A stretch of 64,000 bases of DNA, taken from an uncultured delta proteobacterium (GTDB lineage Bacteria; Myxococcota_A; Polyangia; Polyangiales; B10-G4). The notes under the pieces were generated by a model. The model saw only the letters and a list, made by a program, of their open reading frames with translations, did not search any database and was not told the DNA's origin. The stretch lies in contig CAVSGI010000010.1 in NCBI GenBank assembly GCA_963727445.1, positions 640,001 through 704,000 of the forward strand, given 5' to 3'. Of the stretch, positions 3,522 through 56,804 are shown piece after piece; within the stretch, counting starts at the first letter, position 1; each line of letters begins with the position of its first letter. Both the position numbers and the translations under genes were made by a program.

Positions 3522-5199
3522 TCAGAGGCCGGAGGTGCCGGGTGTCGGCACCGGGAGCGTCGTCGCTTGGAGGTTTGCTCCGTTGTCGTAGTAGTCGACA
3601 GTGGCGGAGAGGCGCGTGAGGTCGTACCCGTCCACCTGGACGCACGCCCCGACCGGGCATCCGCTCACCTCGCCCATGTCGAGGTCGACGCGTCCATCGG
3701 TCGCGAGCTGGAGCCCGCAGAGCGCCGCGTCGCGAATGGCGAACCGCTCGGCTCGGAGCTGCGCACCCATGTAGGCGCCCACGCCGATGCCGGCGGGTGC
3801 ATCGGGGCAATTCGTGGTGGCACATTCGCGCTCGCGCGTCGACAGGACGCGCGTGTCCACGAGCTCGATCTGGGTGCCGGAGCCGAAGCCGACGACCGCG
3901 ACGTCCCGGTTGTCCGTGATGAGCGCTCTCTCGAGGTGGGCGCGCGCGCTGCGGTCCACCGCGAGGGCCCGGCCGTAGCGAAGGTCGCCGCTGGTGCTCC
4001 GGGTCTCGGTGATGACGGCGTCCTGGAGGAGGAGCTCGCCGGTACCGTTTCCCACCGTGACCGCCTGCTCGGTCGCCCGTTCTATCCACACCCGGGTCGC
4101 GTTCAGGTTGGTGCCCTCGGCGAAGACGGCGCGTCCGATGGCGCCGAAGGTCGGGTCGGGGCCCACGTCTCGTATCACCGCGTCGGTGAGGGTCATTCGG
4201 CCGTTCTGAGCAAGCATGGCGGCGCCGTTCGCGTTCTCGATCACGATCCGTTCAACGGTCAGCTCACAACCCACGCAGATGAGGCCCGCGTTCGTCGTGG
4301 AGCTGATGACCACGTCTCGCAGGGCTCCCATGGAGCCACTGGAGCCGAAGGTCCCGACCCAGATCCCCCCGGTGGACTCGCGGACCGCGACGCGGTCGAG
4401 GTCGAGCTCGCCGGCCCCCTCGAGTCGGATGCCTGTTCCGGAGTCGCTCGGCAGCCCCGCCAGCGCCACGTCGCGAATCGACACGTCGGTGCCCGAGAGC
4501 CGAGCGCTCCCGCGCAGCACGATGCCGGCGTCGTCGACCGAGGAGATGACGACGTGCTCCAGAGCCGCGCTCCCGCCGTCGTCGATGACCACGCCGCGGG
4601 TGGGTCCGGGAGATCGTGAGGTCCTGGAGCCGAACGCCGGAGCCGGTGACCATCACGACCGCGGATGCCGCCGGATCGTCAGGGGCAGACAACGTCACGC
4701 CGGAAGCACAGGCTCCTCGGATCGTGACGTCCGGGCCGAGCTCGATCGCCTCGGAGTATGCGCCGACGCCCACCGCGATCGTCTCCCCCGGGGCCACTGC
4801 GGTCAGCGCGTCGGTGATGGTGGCGAATGGCAGGGTGGAGGAACCGTCTCCCCCCGGAGCCGCGTCAGCGCTGACGAAGACCACACCTTCGGCGGGAAGG
4901 CTCGCGAAAACCCCATCGCTGGGACAGGCGGATCCAATCCGGGAGCAACCAGGCTCGCCGGGGAAATGCGCCTCGTTCGAGCCGCACTCGAGGCGGCCTT
5001 CCTCGGGCCAGGGATCGCATCGAGCCAGCTCTGGAAACGCCGCCGCCACCGTCTCACGCCAACCGGATGGGCACGGCGTCAGCACGGGCAGGGCGATGGT
5101 AGCGGTCCCCGCATCATCGTCGACCGGCGGATCCCCGCCACAAGCGACACACCCGAGTACCGCGAGGAGTGGCAGCGAGCTCTCAGCGAATCTCCACAC
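3522..5199 (-). CDS. Lipoprotein with Cys-rich N-region and right-handed parallel beta-helix repeats; frameshifted at ~4608-4610
   Basis: N-half in ORF 4264..5355 (lipobox VAC, EAHFPGEPGC, GGDGS..PFATI) and C-half in ORF 3522..4592. Removing one base from the GGG at 4608-4610 gives ..LTISGPTRGVVIDD.. Colinear paralog of the intact 20286..22385. Confidence 0.75.
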
Positions 5200-6080
5200 C
5201 GGCAGCTCCGATTCGAGCATCGAACCGCCACGCGTTGCAAGTGTCGGGCGTGCAATCGCCCATCCGGCAGCCATCGGCGTCGCAGATGGAGTCGGGGGGG
5301 TACGTCCAGGTGTCCGGTGGCGTGGTGCAATCCGCGCTGGCGAAGAATCTCGCACCCGGTCACGCCAACGACGGGGAAGCTACCCTCGATGGTGGAGTCC
5401 AGCAGGACGAAGCTGGTGACACGACCTCGCCCCAGCACGCGGCTGCTCAGCGTGTCGTATTCGCCGACGCACGTGCGATCGTGGCTCAGCTCGACGCCGA
5501 TGAACGTCAACTCGGCGAGCACCAGCTCCACGGGAGTCGATCCGTCCGTGTCGTGGATGGGCACGACGAAAGGCACGGGAGCGGGCTCGCTCGTCAAGAG
5601 CTCACCTTCGATCGTACCCGTCGTGGTGAACGGATCCCAACGCGCCGGGTCATCGGGGCCCGGCGCGTCGCCCGCGTGCCACGCGTAGTACGACTCGTCG
5701 CTGCCTCGCGCGAGAGTTCCGATTCGGATCGTGACGGGTCCATCGGTGCCGGTACCCTGGATCTCGAACCCGACCATGAGCGCGTCCAGGCGTAGGGCTT
5801 GGGTGAACCCGTACGCGACCGCCGCGTTCGTGAGCGCGAGGGGCAGAGTGTTGTCGAAGTCGACGACTTTGAGCTGAGCTGAGGCCAGGCGATCTTCGTT
5901 ACTGCGGGCGTAGCAGCAGGGCAACGACAAGGTCGACTCCCAGCAGGGATTGGGCATCCCCGAATCCACGGTGCCCGTGTCCGTGAGTGGGGAGGAATCG
6001 GGAGCCGTCGACGTCTCGCCGCACCCGAACACCGAGGAAAGGCTGGTTGCGAGCATCGCGAGGCAAACCACGGGGCGCAC
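5183..6080 (-). CDS. Cys-rich lipoprotein, hypothetical; frameshifted at ~5349
   Basis: Lipobox VFGC. After ..GVTGCE the natural-looking C-terminus continues in another frame (FFASADCTTPPDTWTYPPDSICDADGCRMGDCTPDTCNAWRFDARIGAAGVEIR*) with its stop at 5183-5185. Confidence 0.6.
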
Positions 6081-6213: not shown

Positions 6214-9200
6214 GTGGACATAGCCATCATCGGTATTGGGTGTCGCTACCCAGGCGGCGTCGATTCGCCCGCGTCGTTCTGGCGCCTCTTGAGATCGGGC
6301 GTGGACGCCATCACCGAGATCCCGGACGACCGGTGGAGTCAGTCCACGCAGTTCGACCCTGACAAGCCACCCGGAACCAGCAACAGCCGCTGGGGCGGGT
6401 TCCTCGACGATGTGAGTGGGTTCGACCCGTCGTTCTTCGGTATCTCGCCCCGAGAAGCCGCGGCCATGGATCCGCAGCAGCGCCTCCTCCTGGAGCTCGC
6501 CTGGGAGGCGATGGAAGATGCCGGCGTCCCGCCGGGCACGCTCCGGGGCACGCCGTGCGGGGTGTTCGTGGGCCAGTCGAGCTTCGACTACGCCGAGATT
6601 CAGAAGGCGCCGAGCAACCGGCACCTCATCGACGCCTACACCAACCTCGGCACCGCCGGGAGCATCGCGGCCAACCGGATCTCGTACATCTTCGATCTCA
6701 AGGGGCCGAGCATGACGATCGACACGGCGTGCTCGTCGTCGCTCGTCGCCACCGACGTCGCTTGTCGCTACCTCCGGGACGGAGTCATCGACCACGCGCT
6801 CATCGGCGGGATCAACCTCATCTTGAAGTCCGAGACGACGATCGGTTTCGCCCAGGCGTCGATGCTCTCCCCCGACGGGCGCTGCTTCGCCTTCGACGCC
6901 CGCGCCAACGGCTACGTCCGCTCCGACGGCGCCGGCGTGGTGCTGCTCAAGCCTCTGGCGCATGCGCTACGGGACGAGGATCGGGTCTACGCCGTCATCA
7001 AGGCCACGGTGAGTAATCAAGACGGTCACACCCGTGGCATCACGGTGCCCAGCCAGAGTGCCCAGGTCGCGGCGATCGAAAGCGCCCTCGCGCAGGCTGG
7101 CCTCGCCCCCCACGAGGTTCAGTACGTCGAAGCTCACGGTACCGGGACGCCCGTGGGCGATCCGATCGAGGTCCGTGCGCTGAGTGCCGCGCTCGGAGGC
7201 GATCGCGCGCGCCCGCTCCTGGTGGGCTCGGTCAAGACCAACATAGGCCACCTCGAGTCGGGCGCAGGCGTGGCTGGTCTCGTGAAGGCTGCGTTGGCGC
7301 TTCATCACGGCACCATTCCGCCGAGCCTCCACGTCGAACGTCCGAATCCCGCCATCGACTTCGAGTTGCTCGGCGTCGAGGTGGTGACCTCGCCCACACC
7401 GTGGCCCGAGGGACCGCGATACGCCGGGCTGAACAGCTTCGGCTTCGGCGGTGCGAACGCGCACGTCATCCTCGGGGACGCCCCGCCCGCGCCAGCGAGG
7501 AGCACACCTCACCCAGGCCCGCATTTATTGACCGTCTCCGGTCGTAGCGAGGCCGGCTTGAGAGCCCGCCTGGCGCAGCTCACAGAGTGCCTCGAACACG
7601 ACGCCATTCCGCTCGCCGACCTCTGTCATACGGCGAGCGCTCGGCGAGACCACCACCCATACCGTCGCGGTGTCGTGGGGGCCGATCGCGCATCGCTGAC
7701 GGCCGCGATCTCGCACGCGATGGATCAACCCGTTGCACCGGTGCCGGCGGCTCGGCCTCAGGTCGCCTTCGTCTACACGGGGATGGGGCCGCAGTGGTTT
7801 GGGATGGGCCGCGAGCTCTCGGCGTCGTCCGATGTCTTTCGCGACGCGATGGTGCGTTGTGACGCGTTGTTTGCCGGGCTCGAGCACGGCGTCTCGGTCC
7901 TGGAAGTGCTGGCGGCTGACGAGGAGGCCTCGCTCATCGATCGAACCGAGCACGCCCAACCAGCCATCTTCTCCATTCAAGTTGCCCTGACGGAGCTCTG
8001 GCGGCGTTGGGGGCTGCGACCCGACCTGATCATCGGACACAGCATCGGCGAAGCAGCGGCTGCATGGGCTGCAGGCGCCTTGACGCTCGAGCAGGCCGCT
8101 TTGGTCATCCATCATCGCAGTCGCTTGCAGGCCGAAACCGCCGGCTCCGGCACGATGCTCGCGGTGGGACTGTCGGCGACCGCGGTGACGCACTTTCTCC
8201 GCGGCCTCGAAGATCGCGTCGCCATCGCCGCCATCAACAGCGGCGACTCCGTGACCCTGGCCGGCGAGCACGACGCTTTGGAGCAGATCGCGGAGGCCCT
8301 CGACAGGGTCGGCGCTTTCCAGCGCCGACTGTCGGTCGAGGTTCCCTACCACAGCCCGCAGATGGCACCGGTGGCGAAGCACCTCGCTTCCGCCTTGAGC
8401 ACGCTCGTGCCCGTGCCTGCATCGGTGTCCATGTTCTCGACCGCCTCGGGGACATGGGTCGGCGAGCGCCTCCTCGACGGGGCCTATTGGGCGAGCAACG
8501 TCGAGAACCCCGTCCGGTTCAAAGACGGCATCCATGCGCTCGTGAGCCGCGGTGCGGCTGCATTCCTCCAGGTCGGCCCCCACCCCGTTCTGTCGAATGC
8601 CTTGATGTCCGAGGCCCCGGACCGACCCGCGCTCGCCTCGCTGCGCCGGAACGCTCCGGAACATCAGACCCTCCTGACGGCTGCTGCGCGCCTCTACGAG
8701 CTCGGCCTGTCCTTCGACTGGGCCGAGATCAATGCCGGCAAGCGCGTCGACCTGCCGAGCTATCCCTTTCAACGGCAGCCCTTCTGGCGGGAGGACCAGC
8801 GCTCGGAGGAGACGCGCATCGGCGCCGCGCGTCACCCGATGATCGGCCGGCGGACCATGGCGCCCGCACCCCGATGGAATCCGACGATCGACACGCGTCG
8901 TCTCCCCTGGGTCGCCGACCACGTCCTGCAGGGCTCGGTGGTCTTCCCCGGCACGGGATACGTGGAGATGGCGCTCGCCGCCGGCAGCGAGCTCTTCGGG
9001 GGCCTCCCGGGAGGCCTCGACGACGTGCGCTTCGAGCAGGCGTTCTTCGTGCAGCGAGACACCCGTCACGCTCTCGAGCTCCAGGTCGACCCGGCCTCGA
9101 AGCAATGGGAGGTCTTCGGACGCGGCCCCGAAAATCACTGGATCCGCCACGCGAGTGGGTGGCTGCATCGCGACCGCTCCTCCGTGCCGGTGATCGACGC

Positions 9201-12200
9201 AGCGGCACTTCGGCAATCCTGTCCGATCCGACTCGACCACCAGGCCTGCTACGCGCGCTTCGAGAGACTCGGCTTCTCCTACGGGGACTCATTCCGTGGC
9301 ATTCGGGCTTTGCACGTGGGTCCGCGGCGGGCCTTCGCCGAGATCGAGGTCCCAGCATCGCTCTCGAAGGTGGAGGCCTACTCGTTTCATCCGGCCGTGC
9401 TCGACGCGTGTTTACAGCTCCTCGCCGGCGCGGCGCCGGAGCTCCACGGCCTGGCCGTGCCGGTGGCCATTCGGCGCATGCGGGTGCACGGGACCCTGAC
9501 GCGACGCATCCAGTGCTTCCTCCAGCTCCACGCCGGGCACGGTCAGGATCTGGTGGGTGACCTTCTGGCCTTCGATGAAGAGGGCCGGCTCCTCATCGAG
9601 ATGGAGGACCTCACCGCACGCTGCACGGAACTGTCGCGGCCAGCGACGGTCGCCGACTTCGACCCACTGCTCTATTCCCCGCGCTGGGTGAATGCGCCGC
9701 TCGATGGCAAGCACGATGCCTCGTGGATCCCGCGATTGGACCAGCTCGCCGCAGCTGGAGGAAAGGCGCCACGGTGGCAGGTTCGGCGCGTCGACATCGG
9801 GGACGGCGAAGCAGAGCTCGAAGCGCTGGCCACGGACTACATCGTGTCCGCACTCAGGAACCTGGGATGGCAGCCGGCGCTCGCCGATCGCTTCACGGCG
9901 ACAGAGCTCGGTCGCTCCCTCGGGGTGGATCCGCAGCACGATGCGCTCTTGGCACGCTACCTCGGCTTTCTCGTCGTGGACGGCGTGCTCGGCCTCGAAG
10001 CCGGGTCCTACGAGGTGCGGCGCGATCCGGGGCGACCCGAACCGAGCGCCACCTGGCGAGAGCTCTACTTTCGCTACCCTGCCTCGCAGGCCGAGCTTCG
10101 GCTGCTCCGCCGGTGCGGGTCCCACCTGGCCGACGCACTGGCTGGGAAGATGAGCGGCGTCGAGTTGATCTTCGTCGACGGCTCGTCGAGCCTGTTGGAG
10201 CACCTCTACCAACACGCACCTTCGGTCGCTTCTGCAGCGGCCGCCGTGCAGTCGGTGATCGAGGCGCTCGACGCGGCTCGGCCCGTCGGCCGGCCCCTGC
10301 GGATTCTCGAGGTCGGCGCTGGAACCGGGGGCCTCACGGCCGCGATGGTTCGTGCCCTGCCGGATCGCGAGGTCGACTACTGCTTCACCGACGTCTCGCC
10401 TCTGTTCTTGCAGCGCGCGAAGGAGCGGTTCCAAGACCTCCCGTTCCTTCGCTTCGAGATCTTCGACCTCGAGCAGCCCGCGCAAGAACGAGGCTTGGCC
10501 CCCGGGTCCTTCGACGTGATCCTCGGTCTGGACGTGCTGCACGTCATGTCCCGACTCGACCGCGCACTCGAGGCGATCGGCGAGCTCTTGGCTCCCGATG
10601 GCGTCTTCGTGCTGGCGGAATTGGTGGAGCGCTACCGGACCAGTGAGCTGTTCTTCGGAATGCTGCCAGGCTGGTGGAGCTTTCAGGGCGACCCACGCCG
10701 CGACGATCACGCACTCTTGTCACCATCTGATTGGAAGTCGCTTCTGCAGGAGCACGGCTTTCGCGAGGTCGTCCGGACGGCCGCGCCCGACCCGTCGGCG
10801 CGCGCGGTCTTCCTGGCCCGGCGCCCTCGGATCTCGGCGAGCAGCGAGCCGCGGAAAGAAGAGTCCGCGGCGGCGCCGACGACGGGCCAGCGTTGGGTCG
10901 TGTTCGAGGACGCCGGGGGCGTGGGCGCGGCCATGACCGAACGCCTTCGAACGACGGGGGCCGAGGTGATCACGCTACGAGAGGCCGACGCCCCGGACGA
11001 GGCGCATCTGGCGCGAATCCTCGGGGGCTCGCTCCACGGCGTGCTCCATCTGTGGAACCTCGATGTCCCGGACGGCAAAGAGGCCATCGCGCACGCCGAG
11101 AGCCACGGCACGTTCTCGATCGCGCGCCTCGCCCAGGCGATCCCCGAAAAGGGCCGCGCCGGGTCCCATCCACTCGTCATCGTCACGCGGCAGGCATGGG
11201 CCGTCGATGGGCCGTCGAGCGAGCCCGCCGCGGCCCTGGCGTGGGGCCTCGGTCGCTCGCTTCGAAACGAGCGCGTCGACCTCGACCTGCGCTTGTTGGA
11301 CATCGACGACGAGGCGGACGTCGACGCTCTGTGGACGGAGATCCGCGGAGGCGTGGACGACGAAGTTGCGCTGCGAGGCTCGAGACGCTTCGTTCGGCGG
11401 CTGAACCCCACCGCGCTCCGCGACCTCCAACGAGAAGCGCCGCCACGGGATTGCCGCATGGTGCTGACGGTGCCAGGTCTCGTGGAGTCGCTCTCGCTCT
11501 TCGAAGTCTCGGACGACCCGCTCCCCGAGGGGTGGGTATCGGTCGACGTCGCATCCACGTCGCTCAACTTCAAGGACGTGACCCGCGCGGTCGGCCTCCT
11601 CGCGGAGTCCCGCGAGAGGGCCGCCTCGGCGTCCGAGCTGGGCCAGGAGTCCGCTGGTGTAGTGCGTCGCGTCGGTCCGGGAGTCGACGGAGTCGAAGTG
11701 GGAGACCGGGTCCTGGCATTGGTCGGCGGAGGCCTCGGTTCCGTCGTGCGTTGCCCCGCGGCGCTCGTCGCCAAGCTCCCCGACGACGTCACCTTCGACG
11801 AAGCTGCGGCTATTGGCATGGTCTTCCTGACCGCGTACCACGCTCTCTTGAATCTGGCGCGCTTGCGGCCCGACGAGACGGTGCTGGTTCATTCGGGAAC
11901 GGGTGGTGTGGGTCTGTCGGTCATCCAGCTCGCGCACTCCATCGGCGCGCGCGTGATGGCGACGGCGGGCTCGGCGGAAAAGCGCGAGATGCTCTTGGCG
12001 CTCGGCGCCGAACGTGTCGGAGACTCGCGTTCGCTGGCCTTCGTCGACGACGCGCGCGCGTGGACCGATGGGCGGGGCGTGGACGTCGTCGTCAACAGCC
12101 TGGCGGGCGACGCCCTGCACGCGAGCCTGAATGCGCTCGCGCCCTACGGACGATTCGTCGAGCTCGGCCGGCGCGACATGGAAGAAGGTGGGCGCCTCGA

Positions 12201-14727
12201 TCTTCACCCGTTCCTGGAGAACCGCGCGTTCTTCGGCGCCGATGTCGACGCGTTGCGTAGTGAACGCCCGGAGGAAGCCGGCGCAGTGATGCGCGGATTC
12301 CTCGAGGACGTGGCCCGTGGGCGCATGCGAACGTTGCCGTACAGACGCTTTCCACTCTCGGAGACCGTGCCGGCTTTGCGCGCCCTCTCGCGTGCGGAAC
12401 ACACGGGCAAGTTCGTCATCTCGACCGGCACCGAGTCGCGTACCGTCGTCCCCGCCGCGGCACCGAAGCTCTCGTTACCCGGTACTCACGTGATCACCGG
12501 CGGATTGGGAGGGCTGGGCTTCGCGCTCGCCCAGTGGCTCGTCGCCTGTGGCGCGCGCCACGTGGCGCTGCTCGGACGACGCGGCCTTCAGAGCGAATCC
12601 GACCGGGAACGCGTCGAGGCCCTGGGCCGCGCCGGCGCCGACGTCCGGGTGTGGCCCTGCGACGTCAGCGACTCATCACGCCTCGCCGCAGTGCTCGCCG
12701 AGGTGCGGGCGACGATGCCCCCCGTCCACGGCGTGTTCCATCTCGCCATGGTGCTGCGCGACGAGCCGGTCGCGCGCATGAGCGCACAGACCCTTCACGA
12801 AGTGCTCGCCCCGAAGGCCTGGGGCGCCTTCCATCTCCACAGGCTCACAGAGTCGGATCCCCTCGAGCACTTCGTGTGCTTCAGCTCGGTGTCCGCCGAG
12901 CTGGGAACCCTCTTCCAGGGGTCCTATGCGGCGGCGAACACGATGCTCGATGCCCTCGCTCATCATCGGCGTGCGCTCGGCAAGCCAGCGCTTTCGATCG
13001 ACTGGGGAGCCGTGGCGGAGGTGGGCGTGGTCGCGGAGACGCGAGAGACGGCCAGCTTCCTCGCGAGCCTCGGCGTGGACACCATCCCCGTCGCTCGCCT
13101 CCTGGCGGTGCTGGGCGAGATGATGCGTAACCCTGCCGCCCCACCTCAACTGATGGTATCGGCGATGGATCACGCGCGGCTCATCCGGGCGATGCCGCGC
13201 CTTCGGGAGAGCCCCAAGTTCGAACGCCTGACCGAATCGCTGGTCGAGGCGACCATGGGCACGGGAGGCGACGAGGTCGATCGCAAGACCCTGATACGGA
13301 GAGAGGTAGCAGCGATACTCGGGAACGACCCAAAGCGTGTGCGCGATGACATGCCGCTCGTCGATCAGGGCCTGGATTCGCTGATGGCCGTCGAACTCTC
13401 CAATCGGCTCCGGAACAAGCTCGGAATCGAAGTCGCCACCATGACGCTGCTGGAACACGCGACGGTGACGAGCCTCGAGGAGAGAACGGCCCGAGAAGGG
13501 GACCGCTCTGCATCCGCCGAGTCGGAGTCCTCCGAATCTGTGGACCTCGACGCCGAGGCCCAGCTCGATGCGTCCATCGCACCCACCGGGCGCGACATCA
13601 CACACACCGCCGATCCCCAGATGGTCGTGGTCACGGGGGCCGCGGGGTTCATCGGGGCACACCTGGTCCATCGCCTGCTCGAGCAGACGTCGGCCGAGAT
13701 CCAGTGTGTGGTGCGGGACCGAGGCGACGGCGCTCGCGCCCGATTGCTGCGCGCCCTCGACGGGTACGGGCTCACACACCCCGACCGGGAACGACGCTTG
13801 AAGGTCGTCGACGGAGACGTGGCATTCCCGCGCTTCGGGCTCGACGCCAGCACGTGGGAGTCCCTCGCCGAGGCCGACCACATCTACCACGCTGCAGCCC
13901 GGCTCAACTTCGCCCTTCCTTATCGGGCCCTGCGTGGCCCAAACGTCGTCGGTGTTCGAGAAGCGCTGAGGCTGGGTGCGACGGGCCGCCTGACGCCGGT
14001 TCATCATCTCTCCAGCTTTCCGGTCGTCGGTCAGCCAGGCGGAGTTCCGGCCGAGCGGGGATACAGCGCGCACTACCTCGCGTCACGCGGCTACGACGTC
14101 GGCTACATCCAGACGAAGTGGGTCGCCGACCAGCTCGTAACCCACGCGCGAGACCGAGGGCTCCCGGTCACGACCTATCGACCTGGCTTGGTGGCAGGGC
14201 ACTCCGGGACTGGCGTCTGGAACACCGAGGATGTCACCTGTCGCATCATCAAAGGTTGCATTCTCCTGGGAACGGCGCCCGATCAGGATCAGATGCTCGA
14301 TCTCGTTCCCGTCGACTACGTGGCCGCGGCGGTGGTGAACTTGTCCCTCCGCGAGAGCTCGTTGGGGCGGGGCTTCAACATGGCCAACCCCGCGCCCGTT
14401 AGCTGGCGGTGGTTCGTCGGGTGGCTTCGGGAACAGGGATACGACATCGAGCTGGTCCCCAGTGAGCGCTGGCACCGACAGGTGTCCGCGGGTCGCCTGC
14501 CGGAGGATAATCCACTCCGGAGTCTCGTGCCCTACTTCCAGCAGCGCCCACTGGACCGACCGCTCGTAGGGTATCGCGAGCACGCGCGTGCACCACGGCT
14601 ACTCGCCCGACTCACGACGGGGGCCGCGCTAGAGGGTCAGGGCGTCCTCTGTCCACCTCTTGACCGCAAACTGCTCGGCTTGTATGTCAGCTTTCTGCAA
14701 AGCACCGGGTTTCTCCCGCTTCCCTGA
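6214..14727 (+). CDS. Type I polyketide synthase, single module KS-AT-DH-cMT-ER-KR-ACP with terminal thioester reductase (R)
   Basis: KS DTACSSS/HGTGT/NIGHLE; AT GHSIG and VPYHS; DH HVLQGSVVFP; MT LEVGAGTGG..DVLH; ER LVHSGTGGVG; KR ITGGLGGLG..YAAAN; ACP GLDSLMAVEL; R VTGAAGFIG..YIQTK. Confidence 0.95.
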   Translation: MDIAIIGIGCRYPGGVDSPASFWRLLRSGVDAITEIPDDRWSQSTQFDPDKPPGTSNSRWGGFLDDVSGFDPSFFGISPREAAAMDPQQRLLLELAWEAMEDAGVPPGTLRGTPCGVFVGQSSFDYAEIQKAPSNRHLIDAYTNLGTAGSIAANRISYIFDLKGPSMTIDTACSSSLVATDVACRYLRDGVIDHALIGGINLILKSETTIGFAQASMLSPDGRCFAFDARANGYVRSDGAGVVLLKPLAHALRDEDRVYAVIKATVSNQDGHTRGITVPSQSAQVAAIESALAQAGLAPHEVQYVEAHGTGTPVGDPIEVRALSAALGGDRARPLLVGSVKTNIGHLESGAGVAGLVKAALALHHGTIPPSLHVERPNPAIDFELLGVEVVTSPTPWPEGPRYAGLNSFGFGGANAHVILGDAPPAPARSTPHPGPHLLTVSGRSEAGLRARLAQLTECLEHDAIPLADLCHTASARRDHHPYRRGVVGADRASLTAAISHAMDQPVAPVPAARPQVAFVYTGMGPQWFGMGRELSASSDVFRDAMVRCDALFAGLEHGVSVLEVLAADEEASLIDRTEHAQPAIFSIQVALTELWRRWGLRPDLIIGHSIGEAAAAWAAGALTLEQAALVIHHRSRLQAETAGSGTMLAVGLSATAVTHFLRGLEDRVAIAAINSGDSVTLAGEHDALEQIAEALDRVGAFQRRLSVEVPYHSPQMAPVAKHLASALSTLVPVPASVSMFSTASGTWVGERLLDGAYWASNVENPVRFKDGIHALVSRGAAAFLQVGPHPVLSNALMSEAPDRPALASLRRNAPEHQTLLTAAARLYELGLSFDWAEINAGKRVDLPSYPFQRQPFWREDQRSEETRIGAARHPMIGRRTMAPAPRWNPTIDTRRLPWVADHVLQGSVVFPGTGYVEMALAAGSELFGGLPGGLDDVRFEQAFFVQRDTRHALELQVDPASKQWEVFGRGPENHWIRHASGWLHRDRSSVPVIDAAALRQSCPIRLDHQACYARFERLGFSYGDSFRGIRALHVGPRRAFAEIEVPASLSKVEAYSFHPAVLDACLQLLAGAAPELHGLAVPVAIRRMRVHGTLTRRIQCFLQLHAGHGQDLVGDLLAFDEEGRLLIEMEDLTARCTELSRPATVADFDPLLYSPRWVNAPLDGKHDASWIPRLDQLAAAGGKAPRWQVRRVDIGDGEAELEALATDYIVSALRNLGWQPALADRFTATELGRSLGVDPQHDALLARYLGFLVVDGVLGLEAGSYEVRRDPGRPEPSATWRELYFRYPASQAELRLLRRCGSHLADALAGKMSGVELIFVDGSSSLLEHLYQHAPSVASAAAAVQSVIEALDAARPVGRPLRILEVGAGTGGLTAAMVRALPDREVDYCFTDVSPLFLQRAKERFQDLPFLRFEIFDLEQPAQERGLAPGSFDVILGLDVLHVMSRLDRALEAIGELLAPDGVFVLAELVERYRTSELFFGMLPGWWSFQGDPRRDDHALLSPSDWKSLLQEHGFREVVRTAAPDPSARAVFLARRPRISASSEPRKEESAAAPTTGQRWVVFEDAGGVGAAMTERLRTTGAEVITLREADAPDEAHLARILGGSLHGVLHLWNLDVPDGKEAIAHAESHGTFSIARLAQAIPEKGRAGSHPLVIVTRQAWAVDGPSSEPAAALAWGLGRSLRNERVDLDLRLLDIDDEADVDALWTEIRGGVDDEVALRGSRRFVRRLNPTALRDLQREAPPRDCRMVLTVPGLVESLSLFEVSDDPLPEGWVSVDVASTSLNFKDVTRAVGLLAESRERAASASELGQESAGVVRRVGPGVDGVEVGDRVLALVGGGLGSVVRCPAALVAKLPDDVTFDEAAAIGMVFLTAYHALLNLARLRPDETVLVHSGTGGVGLSVIQLAHSIGARVMATAGSAEKREMLLALGAERVGDSRSLAFVDDARAWTDGRGVDVVVNSLAGDALHASLNALAPYGRFVELGRRDMEEGGRLDLHPFLENRAFFGADVDALRSERPEEAGAVMRGFLEDVARGRMRTLPYRRFPLSETVPALRALSRAEHTGKFVISTGTESRTVVPAAAPKLSLPGTHVITGGLGGLGFALAQWLVACGARHVALLGRRGLQSESDRERVEALGRAGADVRVWPCDVSDSSRLAAVLAEVRATMPPVHGVFHLAMVLRDEPVARMSAQTLHEVLAPKAWGAFHLHRLTESDPLEHFVCFSSVSAELGTLFQGSYAAANTMLDALAHHRRALGKPALSIDWGAVAEVGVVAETRETASFLASLGVDTIPVARLLAVLGEMMRNPAAPPQLMVSAMDHARLIRAMPRLRESPKFERLTESLVEATMGTGGDEVDRKTLIRREVAAILGNDPKRVRDDMPLVDQGLDSLMAVELSNRLRNKLGIEVATMTLLEHATVTSLEERTAREGDRSASAESESSESVDLDAEAQLDASIAPTGRDITHTADPQMVVVTGAAGFIGAHLVHRLLEQTSAEIQCVVRDRGDGARARLLRALDGYGLTHPDRERRLKVVDGDVAFPRFGLDASTWESLAEADHIYHAAARLNFALPYRALRGPNVVGVREALRLGATGRLTPVHHLSSFPVVGQPGGVPAERGYSAHYLASRGYDVGYIQTKWVADQLVTHARDRGLPVTTYRPGLVAGHSGTGVWNTEDVTCRIIKGCILLGTAPDQDQMLDLVPVDYVAAAVVNLSLRESSLGRGFNMANPAPVSWRWFVGWLREQGYDIELVPSERWHRQVSAGRLPEDNPLRSLVPYFQQRPLDRPLVGYREHARAPRLLARLTTGAALEGQGVLCPPLDRKLLGLYVSFLQSTGFLPLP

Positions 14728-14742
14728 CGGACGGAGACGACA

Positions 14743-15300
14743 ATGGCCAGCGACTTTCAAAAGCAGAAGTACCTCGACTTTTTCAACGTCATCGACAGCA
14801 ACCAGAACGGACAGATCGAGTTCGATGACATGGCGTCCCACGTCTACAAGCTCGCCACCGCCAAGGGTTGGCAGGAGAGCGACGATGCGTTCAAGCGCCT
14901 CCTCGACGCCAAGAAGAGCACCTGGAAGGCCATCTCCGAGCGCTGCGGCGGGTCAGAGAAGATCTCCAGTGATGAGTGGGTCGACATGTGCGACGGCGTG
15001 GCAACCGAGATAAAGCGCGACGGCAAGGCGCCCGCGTTCGTCACCGAGGCTCATCTCGCGACCTTCAACTCTCTCGATCTCGACAACAGCGGCGGGATTC
15101 ATCTCGACGAGTACGAGCACTACCTGAAGTCGATGGATGCCTCGACCGCGCAGGCGGCCGACGCGTTCAGCCGGGCCGACGCCAACAGCGACGGTCAGGT
15201 CACGATGGAGGAGCTGCAGGATCTACTCGTCGAGTTCTTCGTCAGCGACGAGCCCGGCGATCCCGGAAACGGCTTCGTGTCCGGCAAGGTCTACGCCTGA
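14743..15300 (+). CDS. EF-hand calcium-binding protein (calexcitin/SCP/calerythrin-like)
   Basis: Canonical loops DSNQNGQIEFDD, DLDNSGGIHLDE and DANSDGQVTMEE, with a degenerate EF2. GGAG RBS; starts 15 bp after the PKS stop. Confidence 0.9.
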   Translation: MASDFQKQKYLDFFNVIDSNQNGQIEFDDMASHVYKLATAKGWQESDDAFKRLLDAKKSTWKAISERCGGSEKISSDEWVDMCDGVATEIKRDGKAPAFVTEAHLATFNSLDLDNSGGIHLDEYEHYLKSMDASTAQAADAFSRADANSDGQVTMEELQDLLVEFFVSDEPGDPGNGFVSGKVYA

Positions 15301-15442: not shown

Positions 15443-16181
15443 CTACTGATGGTGCATCGCGGGCGTCGCGGGGAGCGCCTCGACGCCGACGGTGGCGAGA
15501 CCTGTAGGCAACGGGGTCGTCGCCGTGCTCGCCGCGGGAAGCATGATGCAGGTGGCCGAAGAGGTGAAGTCGATCGCGCCGGTGGTCACGGAAGAGGTCG
15601 GCGCGAAGTCGATCGTCCCGTTCGGAACAGGGACCTCGAAGAGCCACAGTCCGCCCGGGATCGCTTCGAGCGATGCGGAGGTCGACGCGACGAGCAGTCC
15701 GCCCTGGGAGGTGATGCGCGCCGTGGGTGGAGATTGACCGTTGTCGCCGCCGTACCACTTGGCCCAGGCGAAGCGCGTCGGCGAGGTCTTCGAGTGTGTC
15801 GAGGGCGTCATCGAGTGCGGAGAGCGCCTCGGTCGGCGAAAGAGATTGCCAGTCGAAATGAAGCCAGAAGTGAAGCGTGATCGACGCGCGAAGCGTGCCG
15901 GTTCCGTCGATGCGATCCTCGGTCGTCGCGTCTTTGCCGTCACCGTCGAAGAGCTCTATTGGAACGTCTGTCGCGCCGATCGGGAAGGTGATCGTGAGCG
16001 GCGCGCTCGCCGCACCCGGGCCGGTGGGCGTCGGAGGAGGCAAGAGCGTCGGTGCCTCGACCCCCTCGACCGGAATCTGCATGTCGAGGTCGAGTCGACG
16101 AAACGCGTGGTACACGGTGGCGGGCTCGGTCGTGACGACCATGCCGGGCGCGTCGCGCTCGATCGCGACAACGCGGCGCAA
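15443..16181 (-). pseudogene. Degraded remnant of a large exported beta-rich protein
   Basis: Two protein-like segments in different frames (GLLRRVVAIE..VVTTEPAT..; FAWAKWYGGDNG..GGLLVAST..), with no signal peptide or convincing start. Confidence 0.4.
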
Positions 16182-48205: not shown

Positions 48206-51200
48206 ATGGGGGGGCTGCCACTTTCGCCGATGCAGCGAAGTCTGCTTCTGGATGCCTTGCGCGGTGGAGAGCAGGGGGTGGGTGTCGAGCAGTTCGTGGT
48301 GTTCATGCCCGAACGCGTGGACGCAGCGCGCCTCCGCACCGCCTTCGAAGGAGTGCTCGCGCGCCACGCGAGCCTGAGATGCAGCTTCCGCTGGCACGAC
48401 CAGCTCACGCAAGTCGTCCACGATGACGTGTCGCTCCCCTTCGAGCAGGTAACGCTTTCGAGTGATGGCGGCAGTGAGGAGGTCGAGCACTGGCTCGCCG
48501 CCGATCGCCGCCGTGGCTTCTCGCTCGATAGCGCCCCTCTGCTGCGCGTCGCCCTGCTCACCCGCCGAGCCGAGGAGCACCACCTGGTCTTTTCGTTCCA
48601 CCACATCCTCTTGGATGGACGGAGCACGCTGCAGGTCGTGCGCGAGGCTTTCGCCGCCTACGACGGTGGGTTCGACGATGATCTACCCACGGAGGTCGTT
48701 CCCTTTGCTCGGCATGTCGAGCACCTCGATTCGCTGGAGGAGGGGCGCTCCGACGCGTTCTTCGAAGCGCTCCTCGAGGCGTTCGAGGGGCCGACCCCCC
48801 TTCCCTTCGGCGCGCGGACCGAGCACGCGAGCAGCGGGCACCGTGAGCTCTCGCGAATCGTCCCCGAGGAGCGCGCGGCACGGATCGCGGCACGTGCGGA
48901 GGAGCTCGACCTGCGCTCGAGCAGCTTCTTCCAGGCGGCGTGGGCGCTGATGCTGGGCCGTCACGCCGAGGTGCAGGACGTCACCTTCGGCGGGGTCCGT
49001 GCCTGCCGTCACTCCACCGTGGAAGGGGCCGAGAGCATGGTCGGCGTCCTGATCAACACGCTGCCCGTGCGTGCGCGCCTCGATCCCGAGGCGACCGTCC
49101 GCGATCTCGTCCGAGACCTCAGAACGCAATGGGTGGCGCTGCGAGAACACGAGAACACCCCCCTCTCTCGCATCGTCGGTCTGGTGCGCGACGAGTCCGC
49201 CGACCGGCTCTTCGACACGCTCGTCATGTACGAGCAGTACGATCTCGCCACCGAGCTTCCTGCGCTAGGCGGTCCGTGGGCGCCGCGACGAGTGCGGCTC
49301 CTCGAGCACACGGGTGTCCCCCTCTCCCTTTCGGTCTACCACCAGGGTCGAGCGCGTCTCACGATCGAATACGACACGAACTGCTTCGACGACGCGGAGG
49401 TCGACGCGCTCCTCGACATGCTCGATGCGCTCCTCGCCGAGATGGTGGAGGACCCGGACCGGAAGCTGGGGACCCTCGTGGGACTGAGTCCCGAGACGCG
49501 TGACCGCGTCCTCGACCTCTCGGCCGGGCCGCCGCTCGACACGCCGGTCACCGACACCGTCCATGCCATGCTCTGGGCACGGGCCGGGGCAGCCGACGAT
49601 GCCATCGCGGTCTCCTCCGATGACGCGGTCGAGGGCCTCGACTACGGCACGTTGCGCCGTCGCGCGCATGGCTTCGCCGCGCGCTTGTGCGCCGAGGGCG
49701 TGACGCGGGGACAGCGCGTGGGACTGTGCACCGGGCGCGACGTCGACTTCGCCGTCGGACTGCTGGGCATCCTCGAGGCGGGCGCGGCCTACGTGCCTCT
49801 CGACCCCACATATCCCCCCGAGCGCCTGGCGTTCATCCTGGAGGATGCGTCGATCGCCCTGGTGGTCACCACCGAGCAGACGCGAGGAGTCGCGGAGTCC
49901 CTCGGGGCCCGCGCGCTGGTCGTAGGCGACGAGACTTCCGAGGAATCGGTGGGCGTGGAGGTCGACGGGGAAGACATCGCGTACGTGATCTACACGTCGG
50001 GTTCGACCGGTCGCCCGAAGGGAGTGCCCATCCGGCACAGCTCCGTGGTCCGTCATTGTCTCGCGACCAGCGAGCTCTACGACCTCACGGCCGAAGATCG
50101 CATCCCTCAGTTCGCGTCGATCAGCTTCGACATCGCCGTCGAGGAGATCTTCCCGACCTGGTCCGTGGGCGCAGAGCTCGTTCTCAGACCGGCGGATGTC
50201 GTCGACATCGCCGGTTTCACCCGATGGCTCGCCAAGCGCGGCATCACCGTTCTGCAGCTACCCACGGCGTTCTTCCAGCAGTGGGTCGACGCTCTCTTGT
50301 CTCAGGGCATGTCGCTTCCGCCGACGATTCGTCTCGTCATCGTGGGCGGCGAGGCAGCGACTCTCGCTGCATATCGACGCTTCACTTCCATCGCCGGACC
50401 GAACACCCGCTGGATCAATGCCTATGGCCCGACCGAAGCCACCGTCACCGCGACGACCTTCGAAGCGACGGGCGAGTCGCTGCGCGACGATCCGCCGATC
50501 GGAAAGCCGATCCCCGGGGCTTTCGCGTACCTCCTCGATCAGCGATCGGAGCTCGTGCCCTTCGGAGTGCCCGGCGAGCTCTACCTCGGCGGCAAGTGCC
50601 TGACACCTGGGTACCTGAACCGACCCGAGCAGACGGAAGCGCGCTTCGTCGAAAATCCGATCGTCACCGCGGGCGCGCCACGTCGCCTCTATCGCACGGG
50701 CGATCGCGCGCGGCGCCTGCCGACGGGAGACATCGCGTTCCTCGGACGCGACGACCGTCAGGTCAAAGTGCGCGGCTACCGCATCGAGCTCGGCGAGGTC
50801 GAGTCTGCGCTGGCGGTGCATCCGTCGGTCGTCAGCGCGGCGGCGAAGGTGTGGGGCGAGGGGGCCAACCGACGTCTGGTGGGCTACGTCAGCGGCTCCT
50901 CGGTGCTCGACACCGGGGAGATCCGATGCGACCTCGAGGGCCGGGTCCCTTCGCATCTCGTCCCCGGTCGGATCGTCGCGCTCGACGCGATGCCGCGCCT
51001 GCCCAACGGGAAGGTCGACTACGCATCTCTGCCGCTTCCGGCCGACGACGCGCCCAAAGTCGACGACGACAATCGACCCCGCACGCTGTTGGAGCACATG
51101 CTCCTCGAGTTGTGGCGCGAGACCCTCGGACGACGCGACATCGGCATCCACGACAGCTTCTTTGCTAGCGGCGGAGACTCACTCGCGGCCATCCGGCTCC

Positions 51201-52126
51201 TCAATCAGGCCAATCGCATGGGCCTCCAGGTGGACGGCCCGACTTTCTTCGCGAGCCCCACAGTCGCGGAAATGGCGGAAGGAGCCTGCGTACCGCGAGC
51301 CATGGCCGAAGAGGACGCGCGCTCCCTGGTGGTCCTCCAGCCTCGGGGCACCCGACCGCCTCTGTACTTCATGCATTCGACGCCCGGCGACCTGCTCGGC
51401 TACGGACCGTTGATCTACGCACTCGGCGTCGACCAGCCCTGCTACGGGCTGCAGTCGCACGGGCTCGGTGCTTCGGACGAGGCACACGAGTCGATCGAGG
51501 AGATGGCGCGTCACTACGCAGACCTCATCCTCCGCTTCCAGGCCGAGGGCCCGTACGTCCTGGTGGGCTGGTGTTTCGGTGGCCACGTCGCCCTCGAGAC
51601 GGCGCGAGCGCTCGGCCGGGCCGGCCGGCGAGTCGCGCCGGTCGTCCTGGTGGATGCCTTCCCGGCCATGGGACAGGCCGAACGGGCGCTGGCGAAGCTC
51701 CGGCGGGGCGCGACGTTGATCCGGCGAGGGCCCCGACGCTGGGTTACGCTGGGTCGGCGGCTCCTCTTTCGACCGCAGACCGACTACGACCGCGTGTTCG
51801 AGGTCGACATGGACGCGGGCGCTTTCGCGAATCGGCGACACGTCTACGAGACGAACATGCGAGCGATGGATGCGCACCGCACTCGGCACTACCACGGGTC
51901 CGCCTTGCTGATCCGCTGCAGCGAGTCGGACGACACCGTGACCGAGCGGGACTACGACTGGTCGCGCTTCATCGATGTGGTCGAGATCTTCGAGGTGGAC
52001 GCCACCCACGAGACCCTGCTCAAGGAACCCCACGCGACCGAAGTCGCGCGCTTCTTGCACGATTGGATCGGCAGAGCGTGCGAGCTAGAAACTCCACCGC
52101 AGAGTCTGACCGCTCGTCGTGGATGA
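48206..52126 (+). CDS. Monomodular NRPS C-A-PCP-TE
   Basis: C: PLSPMQ, HHILLDG, VGVLINTLP. A: YTSGSTGRPKG, NAYGPTE, YRTGD, QVKVRGYRIELGE, NGKVD. PCP: GGDSL. TE: GWCFGG. Start trimmed to ATG 48206. Confidence 0.95.
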   Translation: MGGLPLSPMQRSLLLDALRGGEQGVGVEQFVVFMPERVDAARLRTAFEGVLARHASLRCSFRWHDQLTQVVHDDVSLPFEQVTLSSDGGSEEVEHWLAADRRRGFSLDSAPLLRVALLTRRAEEHHLVFSFHHILLDGRSTLQVVREAFAAYDGGFDDDLPTEVVPFARHVEHLDSLEEGRSDAFFEALLEAFEGPTPLPFGARTEHASSGHRELSRIVPEERAARIAARAEELDLRSSSFFQAAWALMLGRHAEVQDVTFGGVRACRHSTVEGAESMVGVLINTLPVRARLDPEATVRDLVRDLRTQWVALREHENTPLSRIVGLVRDESADRLFDTLVMYEQYDLATELPALGGPWAPRRVRLLEHTGVPLSLSVYHQGRARLTIEYDTNCFDDAEVDALLDMLDALLAEMVEDPDRKLGTLVGLSPETRDRVLDLSAGPPLDTPVTDTVHAMLWARAGAADDAIAVSSDDAVEGLDYGTLRRRAHGFAARLCAEGVTRGQRVGLCTGRDVDFAVGLLGILEAGAAYVPLDPTYPPERLAFILEDASIALVVTTEQTRGVAESLGARALVVGDETSEESVGVEVDGEDIAYVIYTSGSTGRPKGVPIRHSSVVRHCLATSELYDLTAEDRIPQFASISFDIAVEEIFPTWSVGAELVLRPADVVDIAGFTRWLAKRGITVLQLPTAFFQQWVDALLSQGMSLPPTIRLVIVGGEAATLAAYRRFTSIAGPNTRWINAYGPTEATVTATTFEATGESLRDDPPIGKPIPGAFAYLLDQRSELVPFGVPGELYLGGKCLTPGYLNRPEQTEARFVENPIVTAGAPRRLYRTGDRARRLPTGDIAFLGRDDRQVKVRGYRIELGEVESALAVHPSVVSAAAKVWGEGANRRLVGYVSGSSVLDTGEIRCDLEGRVPSHLVPGRIVALDAMPRLPNGKVDYASLPLPADDAPKVDDDNRPRTLLEHMLLELWRETLGRRDIGIHDSFFASGGDSLAAIRLLNQANRMGLQVDGPTFFASPTVAEMAEGACVPRAMAEEDARSLVVLQPRGTRPPLYFMHSTPGDLLGYGPLIYALGVDQPCYGLQSHGLGASDEAHESIEEMARHYADLILRFQAEGPYVLVGWCFGGHVALETARALGRAGRRVAPVVLVDAFPAMGQAERALAKLRRGATLIRRGPRRWVTLGRRLLFRPQTDYDRVFEVDMDAGAFANRRHVYETNMRAMDAHRTRHYHGSALLIRCSESDDTVTERDYDWSRFIDVVEIFEVDATHETLLKEPHATEVARFLHDWIGRACELETPPQSLTARRG

Positions 52127-53933: not shown

Positions 53934-56804
53934 ATGACGGGCCACCTCGTTGCTTCCGCGCCGAACGGGCCCGACTCGCTGTCGAAGGCCATCGAAGCCG
54001 CGGCTCGCCTGCTGCCGGCCCAGGGCCCGATCGGGATCTTCGTCCACCACAACACGCTGCACGCGTTCGAGCACCTTCCCTTCGAGCAGGCCGTCGTCGA
54101 GGCGGGCGCGCTCCTCGGCTGTGAGCCGTTCCTCTCGGAGGCGCGCTACCTCGAGGAGCTCGCTCGCGGGCGGATCGCGGTCACCGACATCGAGACCGTG
54201 GTTTCAGAGGCGCTGGGCACGGACGCCGAAACGCCCGTGATCGCGGACATGAGTCGGCGGGAGCTCTACGAACGGATCCTCGCCGGTGGAATCCCCGAAG
54301 CGGGCGCGCACGAGACGGCGTGGTTGGTGAGGGAAGGCGACGCATTGCGTGCGCCGGGCGCGCGGATGCTCTTCGATGCGTGCGAGGCGGTCGTCGACCG
54401 TGCCGCGCCCGTTCCTCCGCACGGCGATCCGCCGCGGGTGCGGATGCGCGATCGACTGCTCGAAGCGACCGGCTTCGACACCGACGAGCTCGTGCACCCA
54501 CTCCTCATCCGGCTCTGCGGCGCAGTGCTGGATCAAGGCATCGCGTCCTTCGTCATGCCGGCACGTGAGCGCGGGTTATTCGAGGCGTTCGTCGAGCTCT
54601 TCTCGACCGAGCCCGCGCCGCACGGCGACCCGTGGATGCGCGAGCTCGCCCGGCTCGCACGAGAGGAGCGCGATTGTGGACGCGATGCGACCGCGTCGCT
54701 GGTCCGTTCGCTCGCCGCGCTCTCCGTTCGCGACGACGAGCAACACCGATTCATCGTGGAGACCGCGCTCGCGCTCCGGGGCTGGGCGGGCATGGTGCGA
54801 CAGGTCGAGGAGCGCCCCGATCGCGTTCCTTCACATGCGCCCGCGGTGTCGCTGCGATCATTCCTCGCTGTGCGGCTCCTCGCCGAACGGGCTGCGCTCA
54901 CCTACGTCGCGCGCACGGAGCTCGGGCACGACGGCCCGCTCACCACGCTCCAAGAGCGGCTGCCCGAGCGTCCGGCTGCGCCCGAGCGCGCGCCGATCCA
55001 GCGGGCGTGGGCGCTTTTCTGCGCGGCGACGCACCTCGAGCTGGCGGCCGAAGACCTCGCGGGTGAAGACGGCGCTCGCCTGCTGTCCGAGGTCGAGTCT
55101 CTCTCCTCGCTGGAACGGCGGCGGCTCCTTCACCTCGCCTACGAGCGGCGACACCTTCGCGAGGTGCTCGACGCGATGGCACGGCACCAGCGCTCCTCGG
55201 CCGAGCAACCCTCGTTCCAGGCCGTCTTCTGTATCGACGATCGCGAGGAGTCGCTGCGAAGGCACGTCGAGGAGGTCGCGCCAGCGTGCGAAACCCTGGG
55301 GGCAGCCGGATTCTTCGGTGTGGCGATGTACTTTCGGGGCATCGCCGATGCACACGCGCGGGCGCTCTGCCCGATCGTCGTGACGCCCGAGCACGAGGTC
55401 GTCGAGGTGGCCATCGACGAGAGCTCGCTCTCGTCGCTGCGGCGGAGCGTGGGGCGCGGCGTGGGTCACGTCTCTCACGGCATCGCCGTCGGGAGTCGCA
55501 CCTTCGTGCGCGGCACGCTGATCAGCGCGCTCGCGGGGGCGTTGATGAGCGTTCCGCTCGTCATGAGGGTGCTCTTTCCGCGACTCTCGGCGCGGCTCTC
55601 GCGTCGGGGTGCAGAGCTCACCAAGCCCTCGAGCCGCACGCGGCTGGCGATCGAGCGGCGCGACGTAGCACCGTCGCTCGGACGCTGGTCCGGGTACACG
55701 CACCAGGAGATGGCCCAGATCGTCCGCGGGCAGCTCGAAACGATGGGCCTGTCGGGCCGGCTCGCCGATCTCGTGCTCGTCGTCGGTCACGGCTCGTCCA
55801 GCCTCAACAACCCGCACGAGTCGGCCCACGACTGCGGCGCGTGCGCAGGCGGGCGTGGCGGTCCGAACGCGCGCGCCTTCGCACAGATGGCGAACGACAC
55901 CGAGGTGCGGGCGCTCGTCGCACAGACCGGGCTCGCCATCCCCGAGACGACCTGGTTCGTCGGCGCGGAGCACAACACCTGCGACGACGAGGTGACCTTC
56001 TTCGATGCGGATCTCGTCCCTGCGCGTCTCTCTGCGCCGTTGGAGCGCGCAGCAGCGGCGATGCGAGAAGCGGCGCGCCGAGACGCGCACGAGCGCTGCC
56101 GCCGGTTCGACAACGCCCCTCTCTGGCTCCCGCCCGAGCTCGCGAAGAGGCACGTGGAGGGGCGCGCGGTCGATCTCGCGCAGCCGCGCCCGGAGTACGG
56201 CCACGCGACCAACGCGGTCTGCGTGGTTGGCCGGCGCGGGCGGACGCGCGGACTCTTCCTCGATCGCCGCGCGTTCCTGGTGTCCTACGATCCGGCGCAG
56301 GACGACGACGAAGGCACCGTGCTCGCCCGCCTGCTCGGCGCCGCGGTGCCGGTCGTCGCGGGGATCAACCTCGAGTACTACTTCGGGTATGTCGACCCGA
56401 CCGGCTACGGCTCGGGAACCAAGCTCCCGCACAACGTGACCGGGCTCCTCGGCGTGATGGACGGCCACCAGAGCGACCTCCGCACCGGCCTCCCGTGGCA
56501 GATGCTCGAGATCCACGAGCCGGTGCGACTCCTGCTCGTCATCGAGGCGCCCCGCGATCGCGTGGCGGCCGTGCTCGCCGCGAGCCCTGCGCTCGCGCAG
56601 CTCGTCGACAACCGCTGGGTCCGGCTCGCGGTGCTCGACCCCGAGAGCTCGGAGGTCGAGGTGTATGAACGGGGCATCTACCGCCGATACGAGCCTCACT
56701 CCGCCGAGCTGTCGATCACGGCGTCGTCTCGGCAGTGGTATGGCAACGAGCGGGGCCCCGTGCCGCCCGCCGCGATCTCCACCGGAGCCGGGGTCGCGCG
56801 ATGA
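53934..56804 (+). CDS. dabA: DUF2309/UPF0753 inorganic carbon transporter subunit DabA
   Basis: QGPI..FVHHNTLHAFE, FCIDDREES, GHGS, HDCGAC (Zn ligands C, D, H, C), RPEYGHATNA, INLEYYF, GSGTKLPHNV. Confidence 0.93.
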   Translation: MTGHLVASAPNGPDSLSKAIEAAARLLPAQGPIGIFVHHNTLHAFEHLPFEQAVVEAGALLGCEPFLSEARYLEELARGRIAVTDIETVVSEALGTDAETPVIADMSRRELYERILAGGIPEAGAHETAWLVREGDALRAPGARMLFDACEAVVDRAAPVPPHGDPPRVRMRDRLLEATGFDTDELVHPLLIRLCGAVLDQGIASFVMPARERGLFEAFVELFSTEPAPHGDPWMRELARLAREERDCGRDATASLVRSLAALSVRDDEQHRFIVETALALRGWAGMVRQVEERPDRVPSHAPAVSLRSFLAVRLLAERAALTYVARTELGHDGPLTTLQERLPERPAAPERAPIQRAWALFCAATHLELAAEDLAGEDGARLLSEVESLSSLERRRLLHLAYERRHLREVLDAMARHQRSSAEQPSFQAVFCIDDREESLRRHVEEVAPACETLGAAGFFGVAMYFRGIADAHARALCPIVVTPEHEVVEVAIDESSLSSLRRSVGRGVGHVSHGIAVGSRTFVRGTLISALAGALMSVPLVMRVLFPRLSARLSRRGAELTKPSSRTRLAIERRDVAPSLGRWSGYTHQEMAQIVRGQLETMGLSGRLADLVLVVGHGSSSLNNPHESAHDCGACAGGRGGPNARAFAQMANDTEVRALVAQTGLAIPETTWFVGAEHNTCDDEVTFFDADLVPARLSAPLERAAAAMREAARRDAHERCRRFDNAPLWLPPELAKRHVEGRAVDLAQPRPEYGHATNAVCVVGRRGRTRGLFLDRRAFLVSYDPAQDDDEGTVLARLLGAAVPVVAGINLEYYFGYVDPTGYGSGTKLPHNVTGLLGVMDGHQSDLRTGLPWQMLEIHEPVRLLLVIEAPRDRVAAVLAASPALAQLVDNRWVRLAVLDPESSEVEVYERGIYRRYEPHSAELSITASSRQWYGNERGPVPPAAISTGAGVAR

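Follow-up and report, generated by a model that had tools for sequence, protein, structure and literature searches.

A calexcitin/SCP-type EF-hand gene directly behind a reducing polyketide synthase with a terminal thioester reductase in an uncultured member of the Polyangiales

EF-hand proteins of the SCP/calexcitin/calerythrin group occur in animals and in bacteria and share their fold family with the photoproteins aequorin and obelin and with the coelenterazine-binding protein of Renilla. Calexcitin-type proteins act on protein targets, and the insect juvenile hormone diol kinase (JHDK) has, as its name suggests, a lipid substrate. According to passages of PMC10574481, the bacterial relatives that have been studied are buffers, such as calerythrin and CabB, or developmental regulators, and SCP-type EF-hand proteins of bacteria are presented there as Ca2+ buffers or as proteins of unclear role, with no mention of a link to biosynthetic genes.

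The polyketide synthase (PKS) described below is most closely matched in the PDB, over its whole length, by mycocerosic acid synthase (9d2z), and its enoylreductase (ER) is MAS-like; the alignment to that enzyme, however, skips the methyltransferase (MT) region and includes no match to the terminal reductase (R). The best PDB matches for these single domains are the C-methyltransferase (cMT) of CurJ (5thy) and the R domain of MxaA (4u7w), neither of which comes with the full domain string. CurJ and MxaA are parts of modular lines.

The window, that is, the whole stretch of 64,000 nucleotides analyzed here, belongs to contig CAVSGI010000010.1 of an uncultured delta proteobacterium (assembly GCA_963727445.1; 9.47 Mb, 27 contigs, 85.6% complete, ~69% GC) and contains a PKS gene followed by a gene for an EF-hand protein. 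Both proteins are members of known families; their pairing, which did not turn up in the searches run, recurs once independently, inside a broader trend that was counted without a baseline. No publication bringing together an EF-hand protein, a polyketide synthase and calerythrin was found in the literature covered (subscription journals and supplements lay outside its scope), the term "EF-hand protein" was absent among the best matches listed for the biosynthetic-cluster literature, and, among the matches listed for bacterial iterative HR-PKS with a thioester reductase, no title or abstract opening pointed to such a unit.

Layout of the two-gene unit

The features of the unit, its flanks and the plasmid loci discussed further on are collected in Table 1. 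The stop codon of the PKS occupies 14725-14727 and the GGAG motif lies 6 nt 5' of the ATG of the EF-hand gene, which confirms the 15-bp spacing and the ribosome-binding site (RBS) reported in the earlier note. A spacing of this size is by itself ordinary; taken together with the RBS and with a gap in which neither a terminator-like site nor a significant fold was found, it makes the operon structure proposed in that note probable, and the two genes are likely to be co-transcribed. The PKS probably starts at 6214, since the Pfam KS model begins at residue 2; the database entry for the protein (P0166) is 29 aa shorter than this ORF.

Table 1. Features of the two-gene unit and its flanks (positions in the window) and EF-hand loci on plasmids
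Feature	Position	Strand	Remarks
Upstream flank, divergent lipoprotein-like ORF	5079..6080	-	apparent frameshift near 5350; outside unit
PKS ORF	6214..14727	+	2837 aa, GTG start, uninterrupted
C-methyltransferase domain, CurJ-like	9781..10833	+	PDB 5thy, E 5.6e-61
Terminal thioester reductase (R), MxaA-like	13591..14727	+	PDB 4u7w, E 1.3e-74; TIGR01746
15-bp gap with GGAG at 14733-14736	14728..14742	+	terminator-like site not found
Calexcitin/SCP-type EF-hand ORF	14743..15300	+	185 aa, ATG start
Downstream flank, convergent ORF without assigned family	15443..16181	-	apparent frameshift near 15765; outside unit
Crinalium plasmid, type I PKS cluster with EF-hand gene mid-cluster	NC_019733.1 25037-45568		
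Planktothrix plasmid EF-hand locus			terpene cyclase/P450
S. tsukubensis plasmid EF-hand locus			CDPS-P450
Three plasmid EF-hand loci			type III PKS/P450/prenyl synthase; cqsA; NRPS, one each
Plasmid EF-hand locus			EF-ACAD-P450

The flanking genes are divergent upstream and convergent downstream, as had been claimed. A Pfam search of both gave zero matches and both are apparently frameshifted, so that the accompanying claim of flanks free of tailoring genes holds as far as these ORFs can be named. Several flank ORFs (window 3522-6080 and 15443-16181) appear frameshifted, either through assembly indels or as pseudogenes, and the 8.5-kb PKS gene is intact. Elsewhere in the window are found a stand-alone NRPS with the order C-A-T-TE (48278-52126), 33 kb from the PKS, and a DAB-type inorganic carbon transporter represented by DabA and two proton-antiporter-like genes (53934-59327).

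The synthase and the EF-hand protein

The PKS is a single module with the Pfam domain string KS-AT-DH-MT-ER-KR-ACP-NAD_binding_4, a rare, fungal-style architecture for a bacterium, and its C-terminus scores above the cut-off of the NCBIfam thioester-reductase model. The motifs of all domains are in place: DTACSS, HGTGT and NIGH in the KS, GHSIG in the AT, HxxxGxxxxP and the Asp in the DH, HSGTGGVG in the ER, GGLGG and the Tyr in the KR, GLDSL in the ACP, and TGAAGFIG, the Ser and YxxxK in the R domain. The cMT carries the motif GAGTG and aligns its His and Glu positions with those of CurJ, with an Asp in place of the CurJ Asn before the His. These motifs, which we take to be catalytic for condensation, C-methylation, full reduction and reductive release, bear out the earlier reading of a reducing PKS with an R-terminated string. 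The AT motif reads VPYH; given the presence of a cMT domain, malonyl extension followed by SAM-dependent methylation is the simpler guess for the extender. The R domain of MxaA, the closest to that of the PKS, is presumably a four-electron reductase yielding an alcohol. From its domains the synthase is predicted to work iteratively and to release a methyl-branched, largely saturated aldehyde or, more likely, primary alcohol.

A tblastn search of the 85.6%-complete assembly did not find a second type I PKS, and one PPTase gene, Sfp-like in length and motifs, lies ~98 kb from the PKS. Four metagenomic proteins share this architecture with 33-37% identity to the PKS, three of them with a degenerate R domain and one with a weak MT.

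The EF-hand protein has canonical Ca2+ loops in EF1 (residues 18-29), EF3 (112-123) and EF4 (146-157); the EF1 loop ends in Asp, as it does in all 25 aligned rows (25/25). EF2 is degenerate: its first Asp is missing, and it falls two residues short of its length in the two closest homologs. The loop alignment thus agrees with the pattern of three intact hands and one broken hand noted before. The protein is divergent: its nearest relative among 1.84 billion representatives searched is 38% identical.

The AF2 model (pLDDT 94.8) is a compact globular fold of four EF-hands that places the protein in the SCP/calexcitin/calerythrin group. Foldseek TM-scores were 0.88 for calexcitin, 0.81-0.85 for JHDK, 0.71-0.79 for SCP (with 2scp inside the 0.79-0.88 group) and 0.74 for CabD. 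Calexcitin (2ccm, 4ndb) and JHDK (7pjd, 6kth) are alike in fold (TM 0.81-0.88, rmsd 2.1-2.7 A) and have in common with the EF-hand protein the SDFQxxK start, a GW motif and a C-terminal D.PGN motif; they are, however, animal proteins with 24-26% identity to it, whereas the protein of the window comes from a bacterium, its EF2 is shortened and its gene lies behind that of a PKS. JHDK is the best PDB match both by sequence (E 4e-14) and by Foldseek E-value (TM 0.85). Calerythrin and Streptomyces CabD (1nya, 3aka) are bacterial proteins of the same fold family, with three of four Ca2+ sites (PMC10574481), and match at TM 0.65-0.74 with 17-19% identity.

The earlier note had assigned the protein to the SCP/calexcitin group and stressed its kinship with aequorin and the coelenterazine-binding protein. 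The group assignment and the shared fold family stand, and the silent EF2 is a further common trait of aequorin, obelin and the Renilla protein, but the photoproteins and the coelenterazine-binding protein match less well (TM 0.62-0.74, sequence identity 17-24%) than calexcitin, JHDK and SCP and were ruled out as the closest match.

Neighbours of related genes

In 401 genomes of the order, an alignment search with 8 candidates scored per genome gave at least 46 matches to the EF-hand protein, in 28 genomes. All 46 loci were read, seven of them to 1.5 kb per side and the others wider where the contig allowed. Neither a PKS nor an R gene lies beside any of the 44 non-self homologs (0/44, in 27 genomes of the order), among them the nine loci with context in the protein's own clade, whose neighbours vary. 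Most homologs have unrelated and variable neighbours (e.g., a kinase, RsmB, MFS, ArgRS, RNase R, a peptidase). At one EF-hand locus (L101:1885-3387) an ion-channel gene (Ion_trans) comes immediately after the EF-hand gene, an arrangement that fits a classical calcium-sensor role.

The converse search, for KR-ACP-R with two candidates scored per genome, matched 12 other genomes. None of the loci of these 12 KR-ACP-R or ACP-R synthases, eight of which were read wider, has an EF-hand gene, and a scan of five KR-ACP-R synthases found an MT domain in none; for this reason the 12 are not regarded as true orthologs of the PKS. A true ortholog with readable context was not found in the collections searched. 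Metagenome loci gave the same picture, with PKS-R at 0 of 28 (15 of them shorter than 2.5 kb) and a stand-alone KS just downstream of the EF-hand gene in one, and no PKS was seen in two further genome-contig loci read by eye.

The independent case is that of Nonomuraea gerenzanensis (NZ_LT559118.1, ~6821100-6830290; an 11.85 Mb record labelled as a plasmid). There an EF-hand gene is followed, after a 64-bp gap, by a PKS with the domains KS-AT-DH-MT-ER-KR-ACP and by a stand-alone R gene that overlaps the PKS stop by 4 bp, and the unit is bounded by divergent and convergent genes. It resembles the unit of the window in its domain set, co-directional genes, tight spacing and immediate flanks without tailoring genes, and differs from it in that the EF-hand gene comes first, R is a separate gene, EF2 is intact and the host belongs to another phylum. 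Identities between the two are 48% for the KS, 34% for the rest of the PKS, 37% for R and 25% for the EF-hand protein. Neither set of genes is the other's closest relative, and in a quick tree the EF-hand proteins fall in different clades; with such low identities, both a separate assembly of the two units and an old common descent may be considered. No characterization of the Nonomuraea unit was found. Among the relatives of its PKS in the Streptomyces group, an EF-hand gene is present at 0/4 loci and an R gene likewise at 0/4. The earlier note had named a usual lack of the EF-hand neighbour as what would refute its proposal, and among relatives this largely applies: the adjacency is missing from all four sets (homologs of the order, R-terminated synthases, metagenome loci and Streptomyces-group PKS) but is found in this one independent instance.

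Enzymes of lipid metabolism are recurrent neighbours of the family. In the order, clear lipid enzymes are encoded in the same direction beside 5 of the 44 matches, a raw count without baseline control. Three loci (L072, L073, L074) have lipoxygenase-like neighbours, in both gene orders, and an EF-hand gene is present at 3 of the 30 lipoxygenase-like loci examined (44 were found). This divergent lipoxygenase-like family occurs in 33 of the 401 genomes, one subclade being tightly paired with an EF-hand gene. Operons of the type FAAL-ACAD-P450-EF were recognized at two loci in two genomes (L075:149-7043; L162:5981-11374), where the ACAD of genome G485 and the FAAL of genome G500 were assigned by reading the sequence, Pfam having given neither. 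A methyltransferase follows the operon in G485, and a similar EF-ACAD-P450 arrangement occurs in Streptomyces SAT1 (L190). Weaker cases in the order involve a DAGK-like gene, an amidase and two divergent P450s.

The second EF-hand paralog of the host genome follows an NAD_binding_4 reductase that shares 27% identity with the R domain across 206 aa. Reductase matches of this kind number 19 in the genome, 6 of them at E<1e-18, and the link is suggestive only, as the reductase class was chosen after the fact. At this locus (L024:8520-12947) an ACAD-like hydroxylase and an FAD oxidoreductase are encoded divergently from the orphan FAR-like reductase and the EF-hand gene.

In a plasmid collection, 19 EF-hand loci were opened, leaving aside S. 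clavuligerus strains that duplicated one another and any second position within a record. Nine of the 19 lie in or beside small-molecule or lipid enzymes, again a raw count without baseline control; Streptomyces plasmids are cluster-rich. The 14 annotated loci divide evenly, 7 in or beside small-molecule clusters and 7 not, and the five unannotated ones comprise the Nonomuraea unit, one oxygenase fusion and three that are unclear or negative. The Crinalium cluster includes a KS-AT-ACP PKS, cyclases, methyltransferases and oxidoreductases. In the fusion, found on a Streptomyces plasmid behind a cis-prenyltransferase gene (L193:3591-5447), an MpaB/Lcp oxygenase is joined to an SCP-type EF-hand domain, and seven more records carry an MpaB oxygenase annotation under the EF-hand match (H75-H81; annotation only). 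The recurrence in Nonomuraea and the frequency of lipid and small-molecule neighbours, counted without a baseline, lend support to the idea that the link between PKS and EF-hand protein is non-random.

Possible roles of the EF-hand protein

On a tentative reading, to which we give somewhat less than even confidence, the EF-hand protein may be co-transcribed with the synthase and assist it by handling its hydrophobic product. The PKS would iteratively build a methyl-branched, largely saturated chain, released in reduced form, and the EF-hand protein would bind an intermediate or the product itself, a hydrophobic or reactive molecule, as a carrier or sink, with Ca2+ stabilizing or switching the protein. 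Different lipid and small-molecule enzymes would have recruited the family on several occasions, which would make the pair of the window one instance of a wider habit and not a conserved dedicated system. The Nonomuraea unit, the reductase ahead of the second paralog, the lipid and small-molecule neighbours and the presence of JHDK among the top structural matches speak for this reading; the lack of adjacency among relatives, the low share of lipoxygenase-like loci with an EF-hand gene and the published view of bacterial relatives as buffers or developmental regulators speak against it. Handling of a product or intermediate fits better than docking or JHDK-like catalysis because the partners are unrelated in fold and are mostly enzymes of hydrophobic molecules; a single ligand for the whole family does not fit, as the neighbouring enzymes are chemically diverse. 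Such a role, if true, would provide the family with a function open to testing and would connect calcium with secondary metabolism at the level of proteins.

A plausible but somewhat doubtful alternative is that the EF-hand gene is an incidental neighbour encoding a generic Ca2+ buffer of the calerythrin/CabB type, mobile between loci, and that the PKS works alone. The mostly unrelated and variable neighbours of the homologs, none of which adjoins a PKS in the order, speak for this view, as do the 10 of 19 plasmid loci without a clear cluster, the description of calerythrin and CabB as buffers in PMC10574481, and the frameshifted-looking flanks, which may mark an unstable region. It accounts less well for the recurrence of the domain set, differently ordered, in a second phylum, for the fact that both paralogs of the host genome follow R-type reductases, for the oxygenase fusion, and for the retention of three Ca2+ loops and an RBS.

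It is distinctly unlikely that the protein is a Ca2+ sensor docking on the synthase (e.g., on the R domain) and gating release or activity. Calexcitin gave the top TM-scores (0.88), each of the three reductase-linked cases (the window, the second paralog and Nonomuraea) has an R-type domain, which is absent from the four Streptomyces PKS loci that have no EF-hand gene, and the oxygenase fusion implies that an EF-hand domain can be physically close to an enzyme; the partner enzymes across loci, however, are unrelated in fold (lipoxygenase, P450, R, terpene cyclase), which makes one docking surface improbable, and the EF-hand gene is missing from the 12 R-terminated synthases. Very unlikely is a tailoring enzyme that, like JHDK, modifies (e.g., phosphorylates) the alcohol released by R, since the top rank of JHDK by sequence and Foldseek E-value, the primary alcohol of the predicted product and the absence of other tailoring genes from the unit are offset by an identity to JHDK as low as 24-26%, an equally good match to calexcitin and the many different products of the family's neighbours.

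A bolder extension of product handling, which we consider unlikely, is that bacterial calexcitin/SCP-type EF-hand proteins form an unrecognized accessory class of lipid and natural-product pathways, in which a Ca2+-controlled pocket would hold the product or modify it in the manner of JHDK, and that a unit combining an MT-containing HR-PKS, a reductase and an EF-hand protein was put together both in an actinomycete and in a probable myxobacterium, as the host is judged to be by its gene content. In that event the methyl-branched fatty alcohol or aldehyde of the unit would be stored or released under a Ca2+ switch, and the class would be for bacteria what the ligand-holding EF-hand proteins are for animals.

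Practical tests of these readings are favored by the existence of a cultured carrier of the same domain set, Nonomuraea gerenzanensis, in a unit that is small and self-contained. Orthologs of its EF-hand protein, 85-92% identical, occur in four other Nonomuraea species.
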